Source: an uncultured Neomegalonema sp. (lineage in GTDB: Bacteria; Pseudomonadota; Alphaproteobacteria; Rhodobacterales; Rhodobacteraceae). From it: a stretch of DNA of 37,624 nucleotides. Positions 2,125-12,944 of this stretch are shown here, in pieces. Every line of letters starts with the position of its first letter. Positions within the stretch are counted from its first letter, which is position 1. Below the pieces are notes generated by a model that was not told the DNA's origin, searched no databases, and worked only from the letters and a program-made list of their open reading frames with translations. The stretch covers positions 1 to 37,624 of the forward strand of contig CALFWP010000122.1 in assembly GCA_937927905.1 (NCBI GenBank). Direction: 5' to 3'. The position numbers and the translations under genes are program-made.

Positions 2125-2149
2125 GGGGCCTATATATTTAACTAGCCAA
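2125..2149. repeat. left terminal inverted repeat (IRL)
   Basis: GGGGCCTATATATTTAACTAGCCAA matches the reverse complement of 4731-4755 at 24 of 25 positions. Confidence 0.85.
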
Positions 2150-2182
2150 AAATAGCTTGCAATCATTTTGATTTTTGGCTAG
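2142..2182. repeat. subterminal 11-bp perfect inverted repeat (CTAGCCAAAAA / TTTTTGGCTAG, 19-nt spacer) overlapping IRL and the transposase 5' region
   Basis: Read directly: 2142-2152 CTAGCCAAAAA and 2172-2182 TTTTTGGCTAG. The spacer contains a possible TTGCAA -35 hexamer at 2156-2161. Confidence 0.6.
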
Positions 2183-2210
2183 CTATGTTCGGGAGACAAC
2201 GAGGTTCCCG

Positions 2211-3140
2211 ATGAGTAAGCCAGATACCCTTAGCACTTTCGAGTTTTTTCAGAAGTTCCCTACTGAGGAATCCGCTCGTCAGTTCTTTGAAGCCCGTCGC
2301 TGGAATGGCGAAGCTGTATGCGGTCACTGCGGTAGCGTTTCTGCAAGCGAGTGCAAAGACCACAAGCCAATGGCTTACCGTTGCAAAGATTGCCGCAAGC
2401 ACTTCAGCGTCCGTACAGGAACCGTCCTTGCTGAGTCCCGCCTTCCCCTTCAGAAGTGGCTTCTCGCGATCTTCATGCTCACCAGCGCGCGTAAGGGTAT
2501 TCCTTCCACTCAGATGGCTCGTGAACTCGGCATCACTCAGAAGTCGGCATGGTTCCTTGCGCAGCGCATCCGCGAAACATGGCTTGGCAATGGCGGCGGA
2601 ACCGATATGGGCAACCATGTTCAGGTTGATGAGACTTTCGTTGGTGGCAAAGAGAAGAACAAGCACGCCAACAAGAAGCTTCACTCAGGGCGCGGTTCGG
2701 TTGGCAAGACTGCCGTTGTCGGCATCCGCGACGAAAACGATCAGATTCGCGCAACGCCAGTCCCGAACACAAAAGCCACCACACTGAAAAGCTTCATCCG
2801 CTCTAACGCGCCCGCTGGCGCAACAGTCGTGACTGACAGCTTCAATTCCTACAATGGCCTTGCCGCCGAAGGCTTCGAACACAAGACGGTCAACCACTCT
2901 ATTGGCGAGTACGTCCGCGACAAGGCTCACACGAACGGCATCGAAAGCTTTTGGGCGCTCCTGAAGCGCGGTCACTACGGCGTCTACCACTACATGAGCG
3001 CAAAGCACCTGCATCGCTATGTCGATGAGTTTACTTTCCGTCACAACACATCACAAGCCGGAACGCTTCAGTTCATCGGCATGACCATCACTCGCATGGC
3101 GCACAAGCGCTTGACCTACAAGGAACTCATCAGTGCCTAA
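2211..3140 (+). CDS. IS1595-family (ISXO2-like) DDE transposase with an N-terminal zinc ribbon
   Basis: The ORF is open from TTG 2175. The ATG at 2211 follows GAGG at 2201-2204. It has an N-terminal CGHCGS...CKDCRKHF zinc ribbon and an HTH-like segment (IPSTQMARELGITQKSAWFLAQRI). The catalytic-like motifs VQVDETFVGG, VVTDSFNSY and NGIESFWALLKR are present. Confidence 0.9.
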   Translation: MSKPDTLSTFEFFQKFPTEESARQFFEARRWNGEAVCGHCGSVSASECKDHKPMAYRCKDCRKHFSVRTGTVLAESRLPLQKWLLAIFMLTSARKGIPSTQMARELGITQKSAWFLAQRIRETWLGNGGGTDMGNHVQVDETFVGGKEKNKHANKKLHSGRGSVGKTAVVGIRDENDQIRATPVPNTKATTLKSFIRSNAPAGATVVTDSFNSYNGLAAEGFEHKTVNHSIGEYVRDKAHTNGIESFWALLKRGHYGVYHYMSAKHLHRYVDEFTFRHNTSQAGTLQFIGMTITRMAHKRLTYKELISA

Positions 3141-4143
3141 GAAGAAGCCAGATGACATTGAGCCAATTAACGCGTCCTTTGATGAGGTGGTTGGCGCGAT
3201 CACCCCAAAAGCCAAAAATAACAGTGCCCTAGTGTCTGCGCCGGGGGCTTCCGCGATCACCCCCGGCCAAGGGATGCTCAACCTCCAAATCGAGAAGCAA
3301 ATTGAGGTTGATGGCGTTGGGATGGGAGTGCTTACCGATGGCACTCCGTTCCTTACGGGCCGAGGCCTAGCTAGGCTTTGCGGAATCAACAACGCTAGGA
3401 TCGTAGAGTTAAGCGCAGACTGGACTGACGAAAGGCGGGCGCTCACAAAACGGGTTAAGGAAATACTGGCATCAAAAAGCATCGTCGTTGACGCGCCGCA
3501 CATCGAAATTAATCAGCGCAGCGGTGCATTTTATGCCTACCCTGACGCGCTGTGCATTGCGGTCCTAGAATACTACGCATTTGATGCCGGTGAAGGCGTT
3601 CGCGAAACCGCAATCGCCAATTATCGCCTTCTTGCAGGCAAGGCACTTCACGACTTCATCTACACGCAAGTTGGATATGACCCTGACCAGCATGTCCCCG
3701 CTGTCTGGCGGCAGTTTCATGATAGGGTTTCTCTAACCTACAATTCAGTGCCAACCGGGTATTTCAGCGTCTTCAAAGAGATCGCAGACATGATAGTGAC
3801 GCTTGGCCAAGCTGGCCTAGCTGTCGATAGTTCTTTTGTCCCCGATGGGAGTGTTGGGACTCATTGGTCCAAGCACTGGAAGTCCAATAATCTCGCAGAG
3901 CAGTTTGGAGAGAGGATGGAGTGGGAGCACAACTATCCAGAATATTTTCCGCAGGCTCGATCAAATCCTCAACCAGCCAAATGCTATCCTGAATCCGCCT
4001 TGCCGGAGTTTCGCAGATGGATGCGCGAAAACTATATCGGTGATGGAAAATTCACGAAATATCTCAACACGAAAATCAAACAAAAGCAGCTTCCGGCATC
4101 GTTCTCCCAGATCGTCATCGAGGCTTACGATTTAGATGACTAG
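3133..4143 (+). CDS. passenger protein of unknown function, weak resemblance to P63C-type phage/virus regulatory proteins
   Basis: 336-aa ORF. The GTG start at 3133 overlaps the transposase stop (3138-3140) by 8 nt. Segments GVLTDGTPFLTGRGLARLCG, FYAYPDALCIAVLEYYAFDAGEG and LLAGKALHDFIYTQVGYDP are laid out like P63C-domain proteins as I remember them. The start codon is uncertain (no in-frame ATG until about codon 48). Confidence 0.7.
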   Translation: MPKKKPDDIEPINASFDEVVGAITPKAKNNSALVSAPGASAITPGQGMLNLQIEKQIEVDGVGMGVLTDGTPFLTGRGLARLCGINNARIVELSADWTDERRALTKRVKEILASKSIVVDAPHIEINQRSGAFYAYPDALCIAVLEYYAFDAGEGVRETAIANYRLLAGKALHDFIYTQVGYDPDQHVPAVWRQFHDRVSLTYNSVPTGYFSVFKEIADMIVTLGQAGLAVDSSFVPDGSVGTHWSKHWKSNNLAEQFGERMEWEHNYPEYFPQARSNPQPAKCYPESALPEFRRWMRENYIGDGKFTKYLNTKIKQKQLPASFSQIVIEAYDLDD

Positions 4144-4199
4144 CATCGTGAACAAAATATGACTCCATCTGTTGACACTCGAAGCAACGGAGTGCTGAT

Positions 4200-4427
4200 C
4201 TAACGAAATCGTGAGATGATTCGCTGGATCATGCTCCCGGTAGGAACAGGCACCTTGGCTTTTATCTCGCCTTGATACCGCGCCCAAGCCAGCGACTTAA
4301 GGCGCTCCATAGCGTCATCAGGCGAACGAGCAGAAATCTCGATGCCCCATTCCGCGTCATCGTGTCGATACTCGAATAGGTATCGGCTGAACTTATTGTC
4401 TGAATCACAGAAGGATCCATCAGACAT
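4200..4427 (-). CDS. small passenger protein of unknown function (75 aa)
   Basis: The ATG at 4427-4425 is preceded on the minus strand by AAGGAAG, 6 nt upstream. The sequence MSDGSF...RYLFEYRHDDAEWGIEISARSPDDAMERLKSLAWARYQGEI is protein-like. I believe similar small proteins occur in alphaproteobacteria but cannot name a family. Confidence 0.5.
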   Translation of the reverse strand: MSDGSFCDSDNKFSRYLFEYRHDDAEWGIEISARSPDDAMERLKSLAWARYQGEIKAKVPVPTGSMIQRIISRFR

Positions 4428-4596
4428 GTTTTACTTCCTTTACAAAGATTCTGCCGACCAGTGGCGGTGGACCCTCTACGCCAGCAACAATCGAAAGATT
4501 GCCAACTCCGGTGAAGGGTACTTCAACAAGGCTGATTGTCAGCACGCGATTGACCTTGTGAAAGGTTCAAGGCAAGCGCCCGTTTACGAACGCTAG
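4426..4596 (+). CDS. DUF1508 / YegP (UPF0339) family protein, single-domain, 56 aa
   Basis: MFYFLYKDSADQWRWTLYASNNRKIANSGEGYFNKADCQHAIDLVKGS matches the YegP repeat pattern (F.xYxD..G.WRWrL.a.NgeiIa.S.eGY.sk..a...I..vk). AAGGA at 4411-4415 precedes the ATG at 4426. The track ORF start at 4342 is an antisense extension into the 75-aa gene. Confidence 0.85.
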   Translation: MFYFLYKDSADQWRWTLYASNNRKIANSGEGYFNKADCQHAIDLVKGSRQAPVYER

Positions 4597-4625
4597 CCCT
4601 GAACTGGTAATTGCAAACTTACCTT

Positions 4626-4652
4626 GGCCCCGTTCACGCGGGGCCTTTTTTT
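4626..4652 (+). terminator. rho-independent terminator after the DUF1508 gene
   Basis: GGCCCCG (4626-4632), a 6-nt loop, CGGGGCC (4639-4645), then TTTTTTT (4646-4652). Confidence 0.8.
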
Positions 4653-4730
4653 ATGCTCGTGAATCATTAACCAAATCTTTCGATGCGCAAAGTAAAAAAT
4701 TACATGCACATACGGTTATATCAATCTAGC

Positions 4731-4755
4731 TTGGCTAGTTAAATATATAGGTCCC
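4731..4755. repeat. right terminal inverted repeat (IRR)
   Basis: TTGGCTAGTTAAATATATAGGTCCC is the reverse complement of IRL with one mismatch. Confidence 0.85.
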
Positions 4756-4763
4756 TTAATTTT
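4756..4763. repeat. right target-site duplication TTAATTTT
   Basis: Identical to 2117-2124 and directly abuts IRR. Confidence 0.8.
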
Positions 4764-4822
4764 GGCCAGTACCTTGCCGCTTAATTGCGAAAATAACTTA
4801 TTGATTGATGTGAATGGATTTT

Positions 4823-5095
4823 TTAATAACTGCCGAATTCCATTTTCTTAAATAAAGTCGGCGCATCTTTTGCGTCCATGTTGTATTTTACGCACATTTT
4901 TACAGTATAAAATATATCTATTATCATTAAAAATACGATAAAAACCCAAAAATTAAATAATCCGCCAATTATCTTGTGATTTATATTGTTGATATTTTGC
5001 GCAAAATATAAAAGATATATTATAGATGAAATTTTAATCCATGGTAGCGATATTGTATATATCATACTTATTGTTTTTATTATCATGCTTTGCAA
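4823..5095 (-). CDS. small hydrophobic protein encoded in an extreme AT-rich islet
   Basis: A 90-codon ORF stays open in DNA that is about 18 percent G+C (11 of 60 counted on 4901-4960), where stop codons should be frequent. It has two long hydrophobic segments (ISMIYTISLPWIKISSIIYLLYF and IIGGLFNFWVFIVFLMIIDIFY). The start is either TTG 5095 or ATG 5086, and no clear RBS is visible. Confidence 0.45.
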   Translation of the reverse strand: MQSMIIKTISMIYTISLPWIKISSIIYLLYFAQNINNINHKIIGGLFNFWVFIVFLMIIDIFYTVKMCVKYNMDAKDAPTLFKKMEFGSY

Positions 5096-5212
5096 GTATA
5101 TATAACATTGATTAAAAAATAATATTTTACATTTAAAAATTATTCATTTTCAGAAATCAGATTACCAGAGTTTTTGGTGTTATACCTGATAACGGCCCGG
5201 CACCGGTATATC

Positions 5213-6562
5213 TCACACCAAATCCCAGAACGCATATTTGCGGCCATGACGTTCGCGCAGACCGCTGACGAAAGCCTCATGGCTGTTGAGCGGACCGTAA
5301 TCGTCGATAACGGCATCGGCGCTTTCGCATTCCAGCATATGCCGCGCGGCGTGTTTATAGCGTTTGGATTTACCGCCGTTGAGCGTATCCTCAATCATCG
5401 CACGGCGCAGAATGGTGGCGGCAAGCGGCTGTTTCGCCTCCAGCGCATCCGCCGCCGGTGCCAGCAGAAAGTAACTGCCGCCGTTGATCGTGCCAAGCTG
5501 TGCCAGGATCAGCGCCGCCGCGCGGTCATGGTCCGGCCAGGTGATCAGAAACGACAGCGCGCGGTCAAAGCCGTGTTCCCCGGTCACATAGTTCAAGGCG
5601 CGTTCTTCGGCCTCGACATCGTCAAAATCAGGCAGGCGTTGGAGATGTTCGCGCAGATACTCCCCGTTCAGCGAGGCTTTGAAAGCCCGCCAGCGCATAT
5701 CCTGTGCTTCGTCCCCCAGCTCCAGAGCATCAAGCGCATCAATCCGCGCGCGGGTCCATTCCGGCGGGCGTCTTTCGTCGTGATCGGCTCCGTCCAGCAA
5801 AGCAAGCGCTTCACCCGGCCTGCCCGCCTTCAAAAGGCGGAATGCGATTTTTGCGGCTACTTTCGGCATCCGCCGCATTTCAGGCTCAAACTGTGCCGCG
5901 TAAGCGTCCGCATCCCCAGCAAGATCGGCCAACTGCATCAGCCCGATGCGTAAAACCGCATCTCCGTCCCATACCGGATCATCCAGCGCCGCTGTGTAGT
6001 GTTGCGTCAGCGTGTTCAGGCCTGCTTCGCCCAGCGCTTCTTGCAGTTTCGGGATCAGCTCTCTGAAAATACCGAAAGCACCGTCGCCTGTAACGGTGGT
6101 AAACACCCTCTCCGCCAAAGCGACCGGCTCAATCTTTGCGTTCAGGGCAATTTCGTTCAGATGCGGGCAGGCATCATCATAGAGCATCAGGATTTCTTCC
6201 AAATCGCCGCCCGTCCTGTCGATCACGGGTGATGCGGTTTCCAGAAATTGCCAGAGCAGATCATAAGCTGTCTTCGGGTTATCGGGTGCAATCCGTGTCG
6301 TTATAATATCACGTTGATTGGTCAGGTCGCGTAGAAACGTCTTACGCTTACGCCAGCTGATATAGGACCGTGATCGCCGGATGGTGGCCAGCCGTTTGCG
6401 TACTTCGGTGGCCAGTGCCTCTGTGCCGGACGCCTCCAGCAAAGCGGCCCGGGCCTCCCGCTTTAATGGCGCGCTCCCCTGCACCAGCGTCATCACCAGT
6501 TCCGCCAGACGCTCCGTCCCGAGTGCCTGCAAATTTTTCGCATTGAGGGTTTTTCCGGCCAT
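5213..6562 (-). CDS. conserved hypothetical helical protein (possibly DUF6880-like)
   Basis: 449 aa with host-like GC. The N-terminus reads LNAKNLQALGTERLAELVMTLVQGS...RKRLATIRRSRSYISWRKRKTF and the C-terminus reads RERHGRKYAFWDLV. I recall this architecture from alphaproteobacterial hypothetical proteins. No catalytic motif is seen. Confidence 0.75.
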   Translation of the reverse strand: MAGKTLNAKNLQALGTERLAELVMTLVQGSAPLKREARAALLEASGTEALATEVRKRLATIRRSRSYISWRKRKTFLRDLTNQRDIITTRIAPDNPKTAYDLLWQFLETASPVIDRTGGDLEEILMLYDDACPHLNEIALNAKIEPVALAERVFTTVTGDGAFGIFRELIPKLQEALGEAGLNTLTQHYTAALDDPVWDGDAVLRIGLMQLADLAGDADAYAAQFEPEMRRMPKVAAKIAFRLLKAGRPGEALALLDGADHDERRPPEWTRARIDALDALELGDEAQDMRWRAFKASLNGEYLREHLQRLPDFDDVEAEERALNYVTGEHGFDRALSFLITWPDHDRAAALILAQLGTINGGSYFLLAPAADALEAKQPLAATILRRAMIEDTLNGGKSKRYKHAARHMLECESADAVIDDYGPLNSHEAFVSGLRERHGRKYAFWDLV

Positions 6563-6594
6563 AGGCGTATTGTGCCTCTCCGGTCATGTTATGC

Positions 6595-6624
6595 CAACAA
6601 AAAACCCCCGCACGAGGGCGGGGG
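6595..6624 (-). terminator. rho-independent terminator of pnp
   Basis: On the minus strand: GCCCCCGC, a loop, GCGGGGG, followed by a T-run. On the plus strand this is the A-run at 6595-6604 with stem arms at 6605-6611 and 6618-6624. It lies about 25 nt after the pnp stop. Confidence 0.8.
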
Positions 6625-6649
6625 CTTACTGTGGTTTTGTGCGGCGTGA

Positions 6650-8761
6650 TCAGCCTGCGGTCAGGTCTTCACCGGTGGATTGATCCACGGCTTTCATGGA
6701 GAGTTTGACCTTGCCGCGATCGGCGAACCCGAGCAGCTTGACCTTGACCACATCGCCTTCTTTGACGTGATCGGACGGCTTGCTTCCGCGCTCATTCGAC
6801 ATTTCCGAGATATGGACTAGGCCGTCTTTCGGGCCGAAGAAATTGACGAATGCGCCGAATTCCATGACCTTGACGACCTTGCCGTCATAGATCTTGCCGA
6901 CTTCCGGTTCGGCGGCGATGTGCATGATCATCTCTTTCGCTTTCTCGATCTGCTCGGCATTCGAGGAGGCGATTTTGATGATGCCTTCGTCGTTGATATC
7001 AACCTTTGCACCTGATTCCTCCACGATGCCGCGGATGACCTTGCCGCCCGAGCCGATGACTTCGCGGATTTTATCGGGGTTGATCTGCATTGTTTCAATG
7101 CGCGGCGCATGGGCGGAGAATTCGTCGCGGCCTGAGGACAGAGCCTTGCCCATTTCGCCGAGGATGTGATTGCGTCCGTCATGGGCCTGACTGAGCGCCT
7201 GTTTCATGATCGCTTCGGTAATCCCGGCGACCTTGATGTCCATTTGCAGCGAAGTGATGCCTTCGGAGGTGCCCGCCACTTTGAAATCCATATCCCCGAG
7301 GTGATCTTCGTCACCGAGGATATCGGTCAGAACAGCAAACTGCCCGTCATCTTCCAGGATAAGGCCCATTGCAACGCCCGCCACCGGACGGGTCAGGGGA
7401 ACGCCTGCATCCATCATCGACAGCGAGCCGCCGCAGACCGAAGCCATCGAGGACGAGCCGTTGGACTCGGTAATCTCGGAGACGACACGGATGGTATACG
7501 GGAAATCCGTTGCCGCAGGCAGAACCGCGTGGAGCGCCCGCCATGCCAGCTTACCGTGACCGATCTCGCGGCGACCCGGAGGGCCGAAACGACCGGCTTC
7601 ACCGACAGAATAAGGCGGGAAGTTATAGTGCAGCAGGAAGCGTTCGCGGTAATCTCCGTCAAGGGCATCAATGCGTTGTTCATCATCGCCGGTACCGAGG
7701 GTTGTTACGCACAGCGCCTGAGTCTCACCCCGTGTAAAGAGGGCCGAGCCGTGGGTGCGCGGCAGCATGCCGACATGGGATTCGATGGCACGTACCGTGG
7801 CCAGGTCGCGGCCGTCGATGCGCTTGCCGGTCTTAACGATATCCCCGCGCACGATGGATTTTTCCAACTTTTTGATACATCCGCCGACGGCGCTGCTGTC
7901 TTCCATCTCTTCTTCGGACAGCCCCCCCTGGATCAGGTCACGGGCGGCGGAGACTTTTTCCTGACGCTCGGTCTTATCGACGGTGCTGAAGGCATCGCGC
8001 ATGGCGCTTTCGCCGAGGCCTTTGACCTTGTCGTAAAGGGCGGAGTGATCGGCCTGTTGCACATCGAACGGCTCTTTAGCACATTCTTCGGCCAGCGAGA
8101 TAATCATGTCGATCACCGGCTGAATGGATTTATGCCCGAACATCACCGCGCCGAGCATCACATCTTCACTCAGTTCGGAGGCTTCGGACTCCACCATCAT
8201 CACGGCGTCCTGGGTTCCGGCCATCACAAGATCAAGTTTGCTGTCCGCAAGGTCTTCAGAGGTCGGATTCAGCTTGTATTCACCGTTGATATAACCGACG
8301 CGGCACCCGCTGATCGGTCCCATGAACGGCGCACCGGAGATGGTCAGGGCGGCAGAGGCCGCAATCATCGCCACCATATCCGGGTCGTTCTCAAGATCAT
8401 GACTGAGAACGGTACAGATCACCTGGGTTTCGTTCTTGAAGCCGTCAACAAACAGCGGACGGATCGGCCGGTCGATCAGACGGGAGGTCAGGGTTTCTTT
8501 TTCCGAAGGACGGGCTTCGCGCTTCAGGTATCCGCCCGGGATTTTACCGGCGGCATAGAATTTTTCCTGGTAATGGACGGTCAGCGGGAAGAAATCGAAC
8601 CCGGGTTTCGGCTTTTTCTCAAAGGTAACAGCGGCCAGCACGGATGTCTCGCCGAGTGTTACAATCACGGCTCCATCGGCCTGCCGTGCAACGCGCCCTG
8701 TTTCGATCGAAAGGGTTTCCCCTGCGTATTCTATTTCTTTACGGACGATATCAAGCATCAT
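6650..8761 (-). CDS. pnp: polynucleotide phosphorylase / polyribonucleotide nucleotidyltransferase
   Basis: [34 protein letters not shown]..., two RNase PH domains, then KH ([16 protein letters not shown]) and S1 ([15 protein letters not shown]) domains. The start is chosen at ATG 8761, after AAGGAAAG, giving 703 aa. The 59-codon upstream extension in the track ORF is judged non-coding. Confidence 0.95.
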
Positions 8762-8930: not shown

Positions 8931-8994
8931 ACCGCCACGCCCTATGGGATGCGGCACGGTGGGTATAATTTGTATAGCGTAATCACCGGCCCGC

Positions 8995-9264
8995 TTATTT
9001 GCGGATGCCGAGCTTTCCGATAAGGGCCTTGTAAGCCTCTTCATCGTTTTTACGTATATAATCAAGCAGCTTGCGGCGGGTGCTGACCATTTTCAGCAGA
9101 CCACGGCGGCTGTGATTGTCTTTTTTGTTTGTTTTGAAGTGTTCGGTCAGATTGGTAATGCGCTCTGTCAGAATCGCGACTTGCACGGGGGCGGAACCGG
9201 TATCACCATCAGTGATGGCGTGTTCCTTGATCAGTTCCTGTTTGCGTTCAGCGGTAATCGACAT
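8995..9264 (-). CDS. rpsO: 30S ribosomal protein S15
   Basis: [15 protein letters not shown]...[33 protein letters not shown], 89 aa. GGAGAAAG precedes the ATG at 9264. Confidence 0.95.
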
Positions 9265-9268
9265 GGAT

Positions 9269-10192
9269 TTATCTTTCTCCGGCACCGGTCAGAAGTAAAA
9301 CACGCTCAGGGTGCAGCAGACCGGCCTTTATCCGGCCTATGGCAACCGGCACTCCGTCAAGAGAAGCCCATGCCGTCTGGCCGTATTCGTGACCGGAAAC
9401 AGCCACAGGCACCGCCTGCCCGTTTGTGAGCCTGTTTGCCTGCGCCTCTGTCATGGCAAGGGCCGGGATGCCGTCCAGCCCTGTCGCAACAGAGAGTATC
9501 CGTGCGTTGGAACCGTGCGTATGACGCATTTTTTCCAGAACTTCCAGTGAAATCGCGTCTTTAAGCGTAAAAGGCCCGGTTCGGGTGCGTCGCAGTTGCG
9601 TAACATGCCCGTAACACCCCAAAGCAAGCCCCAGATCGCGCCCGATGGCCCGGACATAGCCGCCCTTTCCGCAGGTCATCTCAAAAACGGCAGTATCTTC
9701 ATCGGGCTGTTCCACGAGGGCCAGTTTATCCATGCGAATCGGTCTTGCGGAGAGTTCCGGTGTTTCACCCTTGCGGGCGAGAGCATAGGATCGTTCGCCG
9801 TTGATTTTGATCGCTGAATAGGCGGGGGGAATTTGCTGAATGGTGCCGGTAAAACTTGGCAGGACGGCTTCGATCCCGGCGCGGGTCGGGCGGCGGTCCG
9901 AACGCTGCGTGATCTCGCCCTCGGAATCGTCGGTATTGGTGGCCGCGCCCCAGCGCACGGTAAAGCGGTAGGATTTGTCCCCGTCCATGACGTAAGGAAC
10001 GGTCTTGGTCGCCTCGCCCAGTGCCATGGCGAGAACACCGGTTGCCAGCGGATCCAGAGTTCCGGCATGACCGCATTTTTGCGCGTTCAACGCCCAGCGT
10101 GTTTTGCCAACCAGCGGCGTGGAGCCGATGCCGGAGGGTTTATCGAGGATCAGCCAGCCATGGACCGGATTGCCTTTGCGTTTTCGTGCCAT
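9269..10192 (-). CDS. truB: tRNA pseudouridine(55) synthase
   Basis: [13 protein letters not shown]...[14 protein letters not shown] (catalytic Asp motif), 307 aa, in the conserved truB-rpsO-pnp order. Confidence 0.92.
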
Positions 10193-10225
10193 GGGTCGCG
10201 TGCCTAAGGCCCGTGCGCCGACGGG

Positions 10226-11662
10226 TCAAGCGGGTGTATTCTCTTTCGCTTCCAGTCTTTGCCGTACCCTTGCAAGGTCACTGACAAGCGTATGATAGGC
10301 CCGCTCGCGCTCTTCGGGTACGGTTTGCCGCAACACGGCGGCGGGGTGCAGACCGGCAAAGGCTAACCCGCCGTCAAAACAGGAAAAACCTTCCCTTGCC
10401 CCTGTCACGCTCAGCGTTTTGCCGTGCAGCGCCCGGATCGCGGTTGCACCCATAGCCAAAGTCAGGCGGGGTTTGATCCACGAGCGTTCAGCCTTCAGCC
10501 ACCGACGGCAATGGTCGATATGGGCGGTGCCAGGTGTGCGGTGCAATCGGGTCTTGCCTTTAGGGATAAAGCGGAAATGTTTGACCGCATTGGTCAGATA
10601 AAGCGCATCGCGCGATAAACCGGCCCCGGCCAGCGCCTCATCGAAAACCGCTCCGGCGGGGCCGGTAAAGGGCCGTCCGGTTATATCCTCGGTATCCCCG
10701 GGCTGTTCACCGACGATCATCAGCGGGGTATCCGCCGGACCTTCGCCGAAAACCGTTTGCGTGGCATGACAGGCATGATCGCATAAAGTACATCCGGCGG
10801 CCTCACGCCGCAAAGTATCAAGCGCATCGGCGGGCGTTGCGCACGGATCGGAAAATTCATAGCTGGCCTCACGCTTAACCGGTGTCGGTGCCGCGCTGAC
10901 CATTTGTGTTTCCAGCGCGCGGGCCGAGGCGATCAGCGGTTCTATCAGGTCGGCCTCAGGCAGGTTTTTCCAGTATTTTTTCGGCATCTCCGATGTCATC
11001 GCCTTTACCTTGAGGCGGGCCGGGTTAAAAATGCTGCGGAAATATCCGCGCCACAGGTCCTCCAACTCATCCCCGTCCGGAGCCTGTGCCGCCGTTGTAC
11101 CCTCTGAATAGGTTAGTGTTTCACGGTCCCAATGGGCGCAGCAGTCCGGTGTCAGGATCGACCAGCGCATATTCGAAAAACGGCGCATGAAAAACGGCGC
11201 AGCCAGTTCCGTAATCCGGTGTTCGGGTTCGAACCACGCAACAAAAGTTTCCTCCGCCTCGCCCTTAACCTCTCGGAACCTTACGAAAGCATGCATTTTG
11301 TGCCGGTCGCGCCGGATGGCTTTGGTCAGCTTGTGCAGCGTGTGGACATCCTCATCGACGCTGTTTGCAAGCAATCCGGGCATATCCTGTGACCGCCAGA
11401 GCAGGCGGTAAAGCAGGTCGAATCGTGCCGGATCACGGTGACAGACCGCCATCTGCGCATCGGTCAGAAAGGCGCGCGGCACGGTAATCTTTGCCTTAGG
11501 CGCGGTGCCTGTATCACGGGTCATGACATCGAACAGATCCGCCTCCTCTGTGCAGACACGCCAAACCACATCTTCGGGACGGATACCTGCGCCGAGCAGG
11601 GCACGGGCGTGATCCCGCCAGCCGCTGAAATCCGTCTCATGACCGATATGAACGATCCGCAT
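10226..11662 (-). CDS. DUF4130 (TIGR03915-like) fused to a UdgX-type family-4 uracil-DNA glycosylase domain
   Basis: The C-terminal half has the Fe-S cysteines (CTLCDHAC), family-4 motif A (VGEQPGDTEDITGRPFTGPAG) and the UdgX-like insertion KGKTRLHRTP (compare KRRIH). The N-terminal half resembles the DUF4130 partner domain. The start at 11662 overlaps the upstream radical-SAM stop (TGATG). Confidence 0.8.
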   Translation of the reverse strand: MRIVHIGHETDFSGWRDHARALLGAGIRPEDVVWRVCTEEADLFDVMTRDTGTAPKAKITVPRAFLTDAQMAVCHRDPARFDLLYRLLWRSQDMPGLLANSVDEDVHTLHKLTKAIRRDRHKMHAFVRFREVKGEAEETFVAWFEPEHRITELAAPFFMRRFSNMRWSILTPDCCAHWDRETLTYSEGTTAAQAPDGDELEDLWRGYFRSIFNPARLKVKAMTSEMPKKYWKNLPEADLIEPLIASARALETQMVSAAPTPVKREASYEFSDPCATPADALDTLRREAAGCTLCDHACHATQTVFGEGPADTPLMIVGEQPGDTEDITGRPFTGPAGAVFDEALAGAGLSRDALYLTNAVKHFRFIPKGKTRLHRTPGTAHIDHCRRWLKAERSWIKPRLTLAMGATAIRALHGKTLSVTGAREGFSCFDGGLAFAGLHPAAVLRQTVPEERERAYHTLVSDLARVRQRLEAKENTPA

Positions 11663-12900
11663 CAGAGCGCGAGCGAGAGCTGTTTTGCGGGCGGAGCCAA
11701 CAGGTCGCGCAAATCCGCCCGATCGGTTAAGGCGGTCGGCCTCCAATCCGCCGCCTCGATAAACGGTCTGATCTTTTTGATATTCCGGCACAGGCGCCCG
11801 ACATGCTCCAACCGCAAGCGGGTGTGCCGCCTTGCGGAGAGGATTTTACCTACGCTGCCTATGCCCAGGCCCGGCACTCGCAGCAGTATTTCTTTCGGTG
11901 CTTTATTCACATCCACCGGAAAGGCCGCCCGCCGGTTCAACGCCCAGGCCAGTTTCGGATCTATATCAAGAGGCAGCATCCCGTTTTCCATGCTGTGGGA
12001 AAGGTCATCGAGACCAAAGCCGTAAAACCGCCAGAGCCAATCCGCCTGATAAATCCGGTGCTCGCGCATCAGCGGCGGGCGTATCGGCGGCAGGTCTTTT
12101 GAGGCATCCGGAATCGGGCTGAACGCGGAGTAATACACCCGCTTGAGCTGATACGATCCATAAAGGTCAGCGCTGGAGCGCAGGATTTGCACATCTTTCG
12201 ACCCGTCAGCCCCGACGATCATCTGTGTGGACTGACCGGCGGGTGCAAAGCGCGGGGTACTTTTGAATTTTTTGCGCTCGTCTTTCCATTGCGCAATCCG
12301 CGCACGGGTCACGGCCATGGTGCTTTTGATACGTTTATCGTCCTTTTCGGGGGCAAATTTCGCCAACCCCTCACGGGTGGGAAGCTCGACATTAATCGAC
12401 ACCCGATCCGCCAGCCGTCCGGCTTCCGCAATCAACTCCGGATCGGCATCGGGAATAGTTTTGAGATGGATATACCCGCGAAAATCCAGCCTGTGCCGCA
12501 GGATACGGGCGGTTCCAACCAGTTGCTCCATGGTGTAATCGGGCGAGCGGATGATTCCGGACGACAGGAACAACCCTTCGATGTAATTGCGCTTGTAAAA
12601 GTCGGTGGTTAATGTAGCGAGTTCTTCGGGGGTAAACCGTGCCCGCCGGACATTCGAGCTGGAGCGGTTTACGCAAAACCGGCAATCAAACATGCAAACA
12701 TTGGTCATCAACACCTTCAACAGCGAGATACAGCGCCCGTCCGGAGTATAGGCGTGGCAAATCCCCATGCCTTCAGAAGATCCCATGCCCTTACCGCCGC
12801 GCGAATCGCGCCGTGTTGACCCGGACGAAGAGCAGGACGCATCGTACTTGGCCGCATCCGCGAGGATTTCGAGTTTTTCCAACCGTGTAATCGACGCCAT
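11662..12900 (-). CDS. putative DNA modification/repair radical SAM protein (TIGR03916-like)
   Basis: SITRLEKLEILADAAKYDASC..., radical SAM motif CMFDCRFCVN, about 412 aa from ATG 12900 (the track ORF begins at TTG 12912). This is the canonical partner of the DUF4130/UdgX gene. Confidence 0.85.
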   Translation of the reverse strand: MASITRLEKLEILADAAKYDASCSSSGSTRRDSRGGKGMGSSEGMGICHAYTPDGRCISLLKVLMTNVCMFDCRFCVNRSSSNVRRARFTPEELATLTTDFYKRNYIEGLFLSSGIIRSPDYTMEQLVGTARILRHRLDFRGYIHLKTIPDADPELIAEAGRLADRVSINVELPTREGLAKFAPEKDDKRIKSTMAVTRARIAQWKDERKKFKSTPRFAPAGQSTQMIVGADGSKDVQILRSSADLYGSYQLKRVYYSAFSPIPDASKDLPPIRPPLMREHRIYQADWLWRFYGFGLDDLSHSMENGMLPLDIDPKLAWALNRRAAFPVDVNKAPKEILLRVPGLGIGSVGKILSARRHTRLRLEHVGRLCRNIKKIRPFIEAADWRPTALTDRADLRDLLAPPAKQLSLAL

Positions 12901-12944
12901 AACCTTTACCAAACTATGCTGGAGCTATACCTGGATACGGGAAT

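Follow-up and report, generated by a model that had tools for sequence, protein, structure and literature searches.

Why should a gene of apparent phage type begin inside the end of a transposase gene? The question is raised by a 37,624-nt contig of an uncultured Neomegalonema sp. (CALFWP010000122.1 of assembly GCA_937927905.1; the whole of this stretch is called the window here), derived from a marine metagenome, in which an open reading frame (ORF) at 3133-4143 on the forward strand encodes a 336-aa protein and overlaps an upstream transposase gene. The original prediction for this ORF read its product as weakly P63C-like, found no assignable motif in its C-terminal part, and saw in it an unusual phage-type passenger of an insertion sequence (IS). 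Our analysis assigns the product by homology to the BstA family of abortive-infection proteins, places its gene as the first passenger of a 2.6-kb IS1595-family element, and finds the same pairing at unrelated sites in other genomes.

Identity of the 336-aa protein

The PADLOC profile PDLC02356 (BstA) aligned to residues 43-332 of the protein across profile positions 3-287 of 292 (E 9.4e-118), and PHROG 6287, annotated as "BstA abortive infection system, replication inhibitor", matched at E 6e-96. Compared with st313-td/BstA of Salmonella phage BTP1, the protein shows 43.8% identity across 93% of the query (E 8e-83). In precomputed annotation, PF26567 (BstA_C) is present on all 120 homologues listed, including the 91%-identical P0001, and the residues that are invariant across the family are all kept in both domains. 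On these matches we assign the 336-aa protein as a full-length BstA-family abortive-infection protein. The founder of the family, BTP1 BstA, has been characterised experimentally: it localises to replicating phage DNA, stops that DNA from being copied and brings about abortive infection (Owen et al, 2021; PMC8585504). Our own Pfam search returned no match to the 336-aa protein because PF26567 was absent from the release searched, not because the protein is an orphan; NCBIfam gave no match either.

The predicted domain layout comprises an N-terminal extension predicted to be disordered (residues 1-50), a KilA-N-like domain (~52-170) and BstA_C (~185-336). All the segments quoted in the original prediction occur in the protein: GVLTDGTPFLTGRGL, YAYPDAL and the C-terminal stretch HWSKHW...GDGKF. 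The segment that had suggested P63C is placed in the KilA-N-like N-terminal domain of BstA, and the C-terminal part that had been left without a motif is assigned to BstA_C. It had also been anticipated that the protein might fall confidently into a well-characterised family with a mundane role. The placement is indeed confident; the role is not mundane, since the family combines abortive-infection defence with a self-immunity DNA element.

The structural search proposed at the outset gave a divided answer. An AlphaFold2 model built from 88 sequences reached a mean predicted local distance difference test score (pLDDT) of 67.7 and a predicted template modelling score of 0.41, with residues 1-50 below a pLDDT of 50 and residues 60-170 confident. 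Foldseek found nothing significant for this model in the PDB (top E 0.17, DdrC), and a sequence-profile search of solved structures gave a chance match only (E 0.2). Against BFVD, Foldseek returned weak KilA-N, Bro-N and antirepressor matches for the N-terminal domain (E 4e-4 to 0.1), which would agree with the KilA-N-like N-terminal domain supported by HHpred in the published work on the family (PMC8585504). The model is only moderate, so we draw no structural conclusion on the C-terminal domain.

Separately, several BstA homologues in our alignment A1 (P0086, P0095, P0019, P0022 and P0026) carry differing N-terminal additions. Some have a fused Cro/YdaS-type helix-turn-helix domain (PF14549, PF15943), and others a motif AKGGxAR..LS..R..IAKKAAxARW, which in four members is scored as Phage_CII.

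The insertion sequence and its recurrence

The ORF upstream of bstA (ATG at 2211 to 3140, 309 aa) is intact, with its reading frame open from a TTG at 2175, and is identified by its profile matches as an IS1595-family transposase: the zinc ribbon PF12760 matches at E 9.8e-9, the ISXO2-like DDE domain PF12762 at E 8.1e-42, and NF033547 at E 2e-57 (194.7 bits against a cut-off of 75). Terminal inverted repeats of 25 bp each, identical at 24 of 25 positions, and an 8-bp duplication, TTAATTTT, enclose both this transposase gene (tnp) and bstA. The IS therefore measures 2,631 bp (2125-4755), and bstA is a true passenger of it. The features are as follows.

2117-2124: left copy of the target-site duplication, octamer TTAATTTT, identical after the right inverted repeat
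2125-2149, forward strand: left terminal inverted repeat, GGGGCCTATATATTTAACTAGCCAA
2139-2185: subterminal inverted repeat, TAACTAGCCAAAAAT / ATTTTTGGCTAGCTA, 93% complementary, between the left terminal repeat and the tnp start
2211-3140, forward strand: predicted IS1595-family DDE transposase (PF12760, PF12762 and NF033547, above curated cut-offs)
3120-3124, forward strand: Shine-Dalgarno-like AAGGA in the 3' end of tnp
3133-4143, forward strand: bstA, 336 aa, assigned from PADLOC, PHROG and comparison with BTP1 BstA
3195-3206: aba-like direct repeat, copy 1, CGCGATCACCCC
3252-3263: second copy of the aba-like direct repeat, CGCGATCACCCC, at a spacing of 57 nt from copy 1
4200-4427, reverse strand: 75-aa ORF (orf75), function not assigned (phrog_2920, E 1e-9)
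4426-4596, forward strand: 56-aa DUF1508 (YegP-like) protein (PF07411, E 6e-13)
4626-4655, forward strand: hairpin GGCCCCG...CGGGGCC (4626-4645) with a T-run after it, resembling an intrinsic terminator and close to the right IS end on its inner side
4731-4755, reverse strand: right terminal inverted repeat, beginning GGGACC
4756-4763: right copy of the target-site duplication, TTAATTTT

The notion of a phage-type protein riding on an IS is upheld by the BstA profiles together with the inverted repeats and duplication that enclose its gene. We asked how often this arrangement occurs in 80 bstA loci, fetched one per species with flanks of up to 10 kb on each side. An IS1595-family tnp lies within ~2 kb of bstA at 14 of the 80, directly upstream on the same strand at 11 and on the opposite strand at L011, L058 and L064 (loci are given by L number); elsewhere in the ±10-kb flanks no tnp was matched. 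The three closest homologues looked up (BstA 82-84% identical) all have the tnp-bstA pair with the same 8-nt overlap as the window, in unrelated housekeeping neighbourhoods, and one of the three belongs to Roseobacter fucihabitans, whose genome is complete. In seven related elements, each at a different genomic site, tnp and bstA are enclosed by inverted repeats and by an 8-bp duplication particular to that element:

L004: target duplication GTTTATTT
L036: target duplication AATTTTTA
L038: target duplication TAATATTT; 2,235 bp, tnp and bstA only
L042: target duplication CTTTTTTT; tnp without its 5' half, bstA intact
L054: target duplication TAAAGTTT
L083: target duplication ATCGAAAT
L085: target duplication GATATACC

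Six of these share the inverted-repeat consensus GGGryCTATATAyyTAACTAGCC at their ends (L004, L036, L038, L042, L083 and L085), and the ends of L054 agree with it at the outer end only (GGGACyTATATAC). At L082, from R. fucihabitans, tnp is frameshifted and bstA intact (5090-7011); enclosing inverted repeats were not found there. Since bstA is intact at both L042 and L082 where tnp is broken, it is under selection independent of transposition. The L042 derivative (~9514-11105) has a truncated tnp, yet both inverted repeats and the duplication are present, and its sequence suggests that the element may be mobilisable in trans. The neighbourhood analysis that had been called for thus finds a recurring IS-cargo context, where an absence of any conserved context would have spoken against the idea.

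Other records are compatible with mobility. Related elements occupy unrelated sites in different genomes, metagenome contigs (the source and one other) join different flanks at 2123 and 4756, and contigs that are nearly identical at the tnp 3' end part from one another at the junction. Among the matches listed, the 15 closest homologues include 11 on contigs no longer than 4.6 kb, as expected since a repeated element breaks assemblies. In PLSDB the whole IS had no close relative, the only matches being a 73% tnp fragment on a Rhodobacteraceae plasmid and a short match to a DUF1508 gene. Neither the IS1595 transposase nor the N-terminal extension of the IS-borne proteins was found in any of the 44 viral contigs with bstA.

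The two genes have not simply co-diverged, because their pairwise identities disagree. Between the window and L085 the transposases are 62% and the BstA proteins 82% identical; between the window and L035 the figures are 74% and 46%. The L054 transposase is 43-47% identical to all others, and its BstA is 65-67% identical to those of L035, L036 and L038. These values point to movement of the bstA module between related IS backbones, or the reverse.

The cargo 3' of bstA varies: orf75 and the DUF1508 gene in the window, other small ORFs elsewhere. Neither gene has a counterpart in the related elements, and orf75 was not found in the 80 genome loci or in the cargo of L082-L085; both are thus variable cargo outside any conserved system. 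They diverge from one palindromic CATG at 4425-4428 with overlapping start codons, so that the promoter and ribosome-binding site of each would fall in the other gene; one of the two start assignments may be wrong. A different cargo pair, homologous between the two loci, lies within the IS at L083 (7017-7974) and L085 (7006-7984), made up of a 78-79-aa ORF on the reverse strand and a 223-230-aa ORF on the forward strand, both without Pfam matches in precomputed tables, and a remnant of it is seen at L082 (7318-7773). L083 also has a second IS1595-family tnp, without bstA, ~3.5 kb downstream of the bstA-bearing IS on the same contig (10569-11453). At L034, from a metagenome-assembled genome of Verrucomicrobiia, a degenerate IS1595 tnp and bstA lie between 30-bp direct repeats (8983-9012 and 11264-11293).

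At the left end of the IS, the subterminal inverted repeat (2139-2185) is possibly a transposase-binding or regulatory region; a second GGCTAG motif occurs at the corresponding site in L004, L035, L036 and L038. A promoter candidate seen by eye at 2157-2185 (TTGCAA-17-TAGCTA) was dropped, as it failed the -10 consensus. A tandem repeat forms the target site: TAATTTTGGCCAG[C/T]ACCTT stands at 2100-2118 and 4757-4775, on either side of the IS and 95% identical, and resembles the subterminal IS motif TTTTGGCTAGC. This resemblance could reflect a preference in target choice, or the repeat could be what remains of an earlier IS end.

The junction with the transposase gene and the direct repeats

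The bstA start codon (GTG, 3133-3135) precedes the end of the tnp stop codon (TAA, 3138-3140), giving the 8-nt overlap that had been noted from the sequence at the start. A Shine-Dalgarno-like AAGGA at 3120-3124 lies within the last tnp codons (Y-K-E-L), 8 nt 5' of the GTG. All seven related elements have AAGGA, AAGGG or AAAGG within the tnp Y-K-E/G-L codons, and in all seven the bstA start falls at the equivalent site, where it either overlaps the tnp stop or directly adjoins it (six with ATG and one, L085, with GTG as in the window). Across genome and encoding-contig loci, junctions of the 8-nt overlap type read ATGGCTAA or ATGGCTGA, those of the 11-nt type read ATGCCGCCTAA, and those of the 4-nt type read ATGA; at L042 a 5-nt gap replaces the overlap. 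Translation of bstA is likely coupled to that of tnp. The co-transcription and translational coupling proposed originally are, with the stop/start overlap and the Shine-Dalgarno-like site both conserved, upheld as probable.

A second feature is located just inside this start. In BTP1, a 63-bp DNA element called aba spans the bstA start codon and is bounded by direct repeats of CCCGCC; a prophage that carries it is spared by its own BstA, each BstA having its own cognate aba, and point mutations in either repeat copy abolish immunity (Owen et al, 2021; PMC8585504). In the text of that paper the repeats are described for BTP1 only, and we found no post-2021 paper on the aba mechanism in the literature searched. 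In the window, CGCGATCACCCC occurs twice in the 5' coding region of bstA, as exact 12-nt copies 57 nt apart. Copy 1 begins 88 nt upstream of the Leu51 codon, which is the position used across the family, and copy 2 coincides in part with the site equivalent to that of the second CCCGCC repeat in BTP1 aba, so that the window repeats lie within a few nucleotides of the BTP1 repeat position.

We scanned the 185 nt upstream of the conserved domain at each locus for the best direct repeat with a spacing of 35-80 nt. Among genome loci the best repeat had a spacing of 56 or 57 nt in 50 of 78, and among viral loci in 30 of 42, compared with 16 of 390 shuffles and 16 of 234 in-gene control windows. A repeat pair scoring at least 8 (exact save for rare mismatches) was present at the expected place in 58 of 129 loci, and in 0 of 131 when the window of the scan was shifted by 400 nt. 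The repeats fall into ~25-30 sequence classes across lineages (for example AAGGAAATCACC, ATCCGATCAC, AGGAACTCGAC, TTTGGTCACCA and GGGCGCCATG), and both copies change together. In BTP1 itself the repeated unit is CCCGCCA, its two copies standing at a spacing of 56 nt and a few nucleotides at most from the corresponding site. The pattern is also seen in Pseudomonas phage D14H (CCGCCAG, 56 nt) and in phage CL707 (57 nt), and a Klebsiella phage gives no clean fit. The same architecture is found in prophage loci that have no transposase.

Within the window and three close homologues, conserved residues use identical codons at 6 of 8 positions inside the repeats and at 25 of 229 elsewhere (Fisher p = 7e-5). 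Copy 1 lies upstream of the ORF in many non-IS loci (L006, L015, L030, L032, L041 and L050). The repeat is a feature of the DNA and not of the peptide, because 56 is not a multiple of 3, copy 1 is often outside the ORF, and the codons are frozen. With repeats at the family position and spacing, the window thus keeps the aba architecture, and we predict that its repeats form an aba element. In the IS lineage the ORF has grown at its 5' end, through both repeats and up to the tnp stop.

An inverted repeat with a 7-bp stem, CCGGGGG ... CCCCCGG, encloses copy 2 in the window (3241-3265). Shorter stems are seen at the same place in L082, L085 and L083 (CGGGG/CCCCG, CCGGG/CCCGG and GGTG/CACC).

These repeats bear on where the protein begins. 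If the real start were the internal ATG at 3274 (Met48), the 47 codons upstream would be untranslated and hold aba, and bstA would not be coupled to tnp. Such a start fits a BstA profile match that begins at residue 43, the pLDDT below 50 of residues 1-50, a BTP1 BstA start at about the position of residue 35, and phage loci in which the repeats straddle the start codon, the first BTP1 repeat being non-coding. However, Met48 is replaced by Arg in L082 and by Asn in L085, both close homologues, and L085 has no alternative start ahead of the conserved domain. The N-terminal peptide M[PA]KK..IEPIDAxF[DE][DE]V is kept down to ~45% BstA identity, through synonymous changes among elements at 45-84% identity, and the start at the tnp stop recurs with its Shine-Dalgarno-like sequence in all seven related elements. 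Since the N-terminal peptide is kept and Met48 is not, the upstream GTG is the true start, and bstA is likely to be translated by coupling; we regard an internal start as improbable.

Interpretation, genomic setting and comparison with known systems

Overall, we think it probable that the window holds a 2.6-kb IS1595-family element with bstA as its conserved first passenger, combining abortive-infection defence, an aba element, coupling to tnp, and mobility. In this model tnp and bstA would be transcribed as a single unit, and ribosomes finishing tnp would restart at the overlapping GTG, which has AAGGA 8 nt ahead of it. BstA output would be low and constitutive, tied to the one gene that the element always expresses, much as in prophages, where bstA follows immediately after the cI repressor gene. 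Judged by homology to the BstA proteins of BTP1, Klebsiella and E. coli, the KilA-N-like domain would associate with replicating phage DNA and block its replication, and the infected cell would die without releasing progeny. The two 12-nt repeats would act as aba, exempting DNA that carries enough copies from the cognate BstA. The unit of tnp, bstA, aba and variable small cargo would move by DDE transposition, making 8-bp duplications at AT-rich sites, and the bstA/aba module has, besides, been swapped between IS backbones.

The protein might instead serve the element: a BstA-like protein co-opted as a transposition accessory, acting as a DNA-binding regulator or target selector on the repeats or the IS ends, and not in defence. 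The conserved coupling to tnp and the predicted DNA-binding type of the N-terminal domain are compatible with such a role, as are a conserved repeat pair within bstA that could be a binding site and an N-terminal extension specific to the IS-borne proteins. Against it, the invariant residues of both domains are all retained, prophage loci without a transposase have the same repeats, and bstA remains intact where tnp is truncated (L042) or frameshifted (L082). No bstA was found beside other plasmid-borne IS1595 tnp; 474 plasmid records have a tnp homologue and only 13 a BstA homologue, with co-occurrence not cross-checked. An accessory function thus seems to us unlikely, somewhat more so than the internal start.

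A P63C-type transcriptional regulator of DNA viruses would be of the right general type, a phage-derived protein with a DNA-binding domain, but HMMER found nothing for P63C (PF10546) or KilA-N at E<=1 in the protein and 26 homologues, and the BstA profiles match strongly over its full length; we give this identity very little credence. Least credible of all is an accidental adjacency, an IS1595 element having inserted beside a resident bstA that is not its cargo, for although tnp is on the other strand at three loci and no enclosing inverted repeats were found for the distant tnp loci L051, L056, L057 and L060, the two genes overlap, and both in the window and in its seven relatives at unrelated sites they lie together between inverted repeats and 8-bp duplications. 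We favour none of these explanations over a defence gene carried as IS cargo.

Several points do weigh against the defence-cargo model. The protein is only 43.8% identical to the BstA that has been studied experimentally, and the KilA-N assignment draws on the literature, on weak Foldseek matches and on a moderate model. A promoter scan found no convincing sigma-70 promoter in the left end of the IS, no RNA data were found for the IS region (the matching runs are all DNA metagenomes), and coupling to a transposase gene could mean that very little BstA is made. The loci are inter-related, so that our counts overstate independence, and the four distant tnp loci just named yielded no inverted repeats around bstA. 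Finally, a chromosomal IS has no lytic cycle to protect. Its retention of aba may benefit plasmids or phages into which the IS moves, or the repeats may have another role, for example as a BstA operator.

More tentatively, and with less confidence than we place in the element as a whole, the IS-borne bstA and aba could be a portable cassette of defence and self-tag. The co-varying repeats at 56/57 nt would then be a family-wide code for aba specificity, replicons entered by the IS would become exempt, and the cassette would be shuffled among IS1595 backbones at the junction of tnp stop and bstA start. If this is true, IS transposition is a possible route by which bstA and its immunity pass among chromosomes, plasmids and prophages.

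The surroundings of the IS are those of a housekeeping chromosome, and no phage genes were found in the 37.6-kb window. Neighbouring genes annotated by Pfam are truB, a UDG/radical-SAM pair, a histidine kinase gene, a recN-like SMC-N gene and secA; pnp, rpsO and a CDP-alcohol phosphatidyltransferase-like gene were recognised by eye from translations, and there is one tRNA-Met. Two further observations lie outside the IS (5213-6562 and 10226-12912): a protein of 449 aa with a DUF6880 match (E 7e-150) and, beside a radical-SAM protein, a fusion of DUF4130 and UDG.

The BstA and IS1595 families are each already known. In the literature searched, we found no report that links the two or that describes a family-wide repeat pattern. 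The text of the founding study (PMC8585504) mentions neither IS nor transposases; its Figure 2A, a chart of co-occurring Pfam domains, might list such a domain. In that study 79% of BstA homologues lie in prophages and 21% are "prophage-independent", and carriage by IS may help to account for the latter. Earlier descriptions present BstA as a defence encoded by prophages; in the present case an entire clade rides on a minimal IS, probably coupled to its transposase, and simple IS are thus possible vehicles for spreading anti-phage genes. The most useful part is likely to be the family-wide repeat rule, which pictures aba concretely as two short repeats with a fixed spacing of 56/57 nt and co-varying sequence, and predicts the nucleotides that set cognate specificity. 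Another point of interest is that an element without a lytic cycle keeps a predicted immunity tag under selection.

Defence cargo is known on larger mobile elements, such as Tn7-like elements, integrative elements and prophage hotspots. The bstA carrier resembles these in that an anti-phage gene hitch-hikes on a mobile element, and differs in being about the smallest possible, with 2.2-3.4 kb and one transposase, and in that one gene makes up the whole system and supplies an immunity tag of its own. Within IS1595, the ISPna2 and ISNwi1 groups are said to have been described with passenger genes by Siguier, Gagnevin and Chandler in 2009. The window element shares with IS1595 elements that have passengers a zinc-ribbon and DDE transposase, short inverted repeats, an 8-bp duplication and one or a few passengers within the repeats, downstream of tnp; unlike theirs, its passenger is a predicted defence gene, found throughout a clade and overlapping tnp. 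P63C and KilA-N were reportedly described together, as distinct domains, by Iyer in 2002. With viral proteins of the KilA-N, Bro-N and P63C types, BstA shares the weak structural matches of its N-terminal domain to KilA-N, Bro-N and antirepressors, whereas it has no Pfam profile match to KilA-N or P63C and its C-terminal domain is BstA-specific.

The closest comparison is with bstA of prophages. The 336-aa protein belongs over its full length to the family of the BstA proteins of BTP1, Klebsiella and E. coli, with a predicted two-domain layout like theirs, and its gene likewise lies directly downstream of a presumably constitutively expressed maintenance gene of a mobile element. The carrier differs, being an IS with a transposase gene in place of cI upstream; the prophage location downstream of a repressor gene, which is typical of the family and not required, is not found in the window. 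As in BTP1 aba, two short direct repeats with a spacing of 56-57 nt stand at the homologous 5' position, reading CCCGCC in the phage and CGCGATCACCCC in the window. In contrast to BTP1, the window start overlaps the upstream stop and the ORF is ~35-47 codons longer, so that both repeats are coding.

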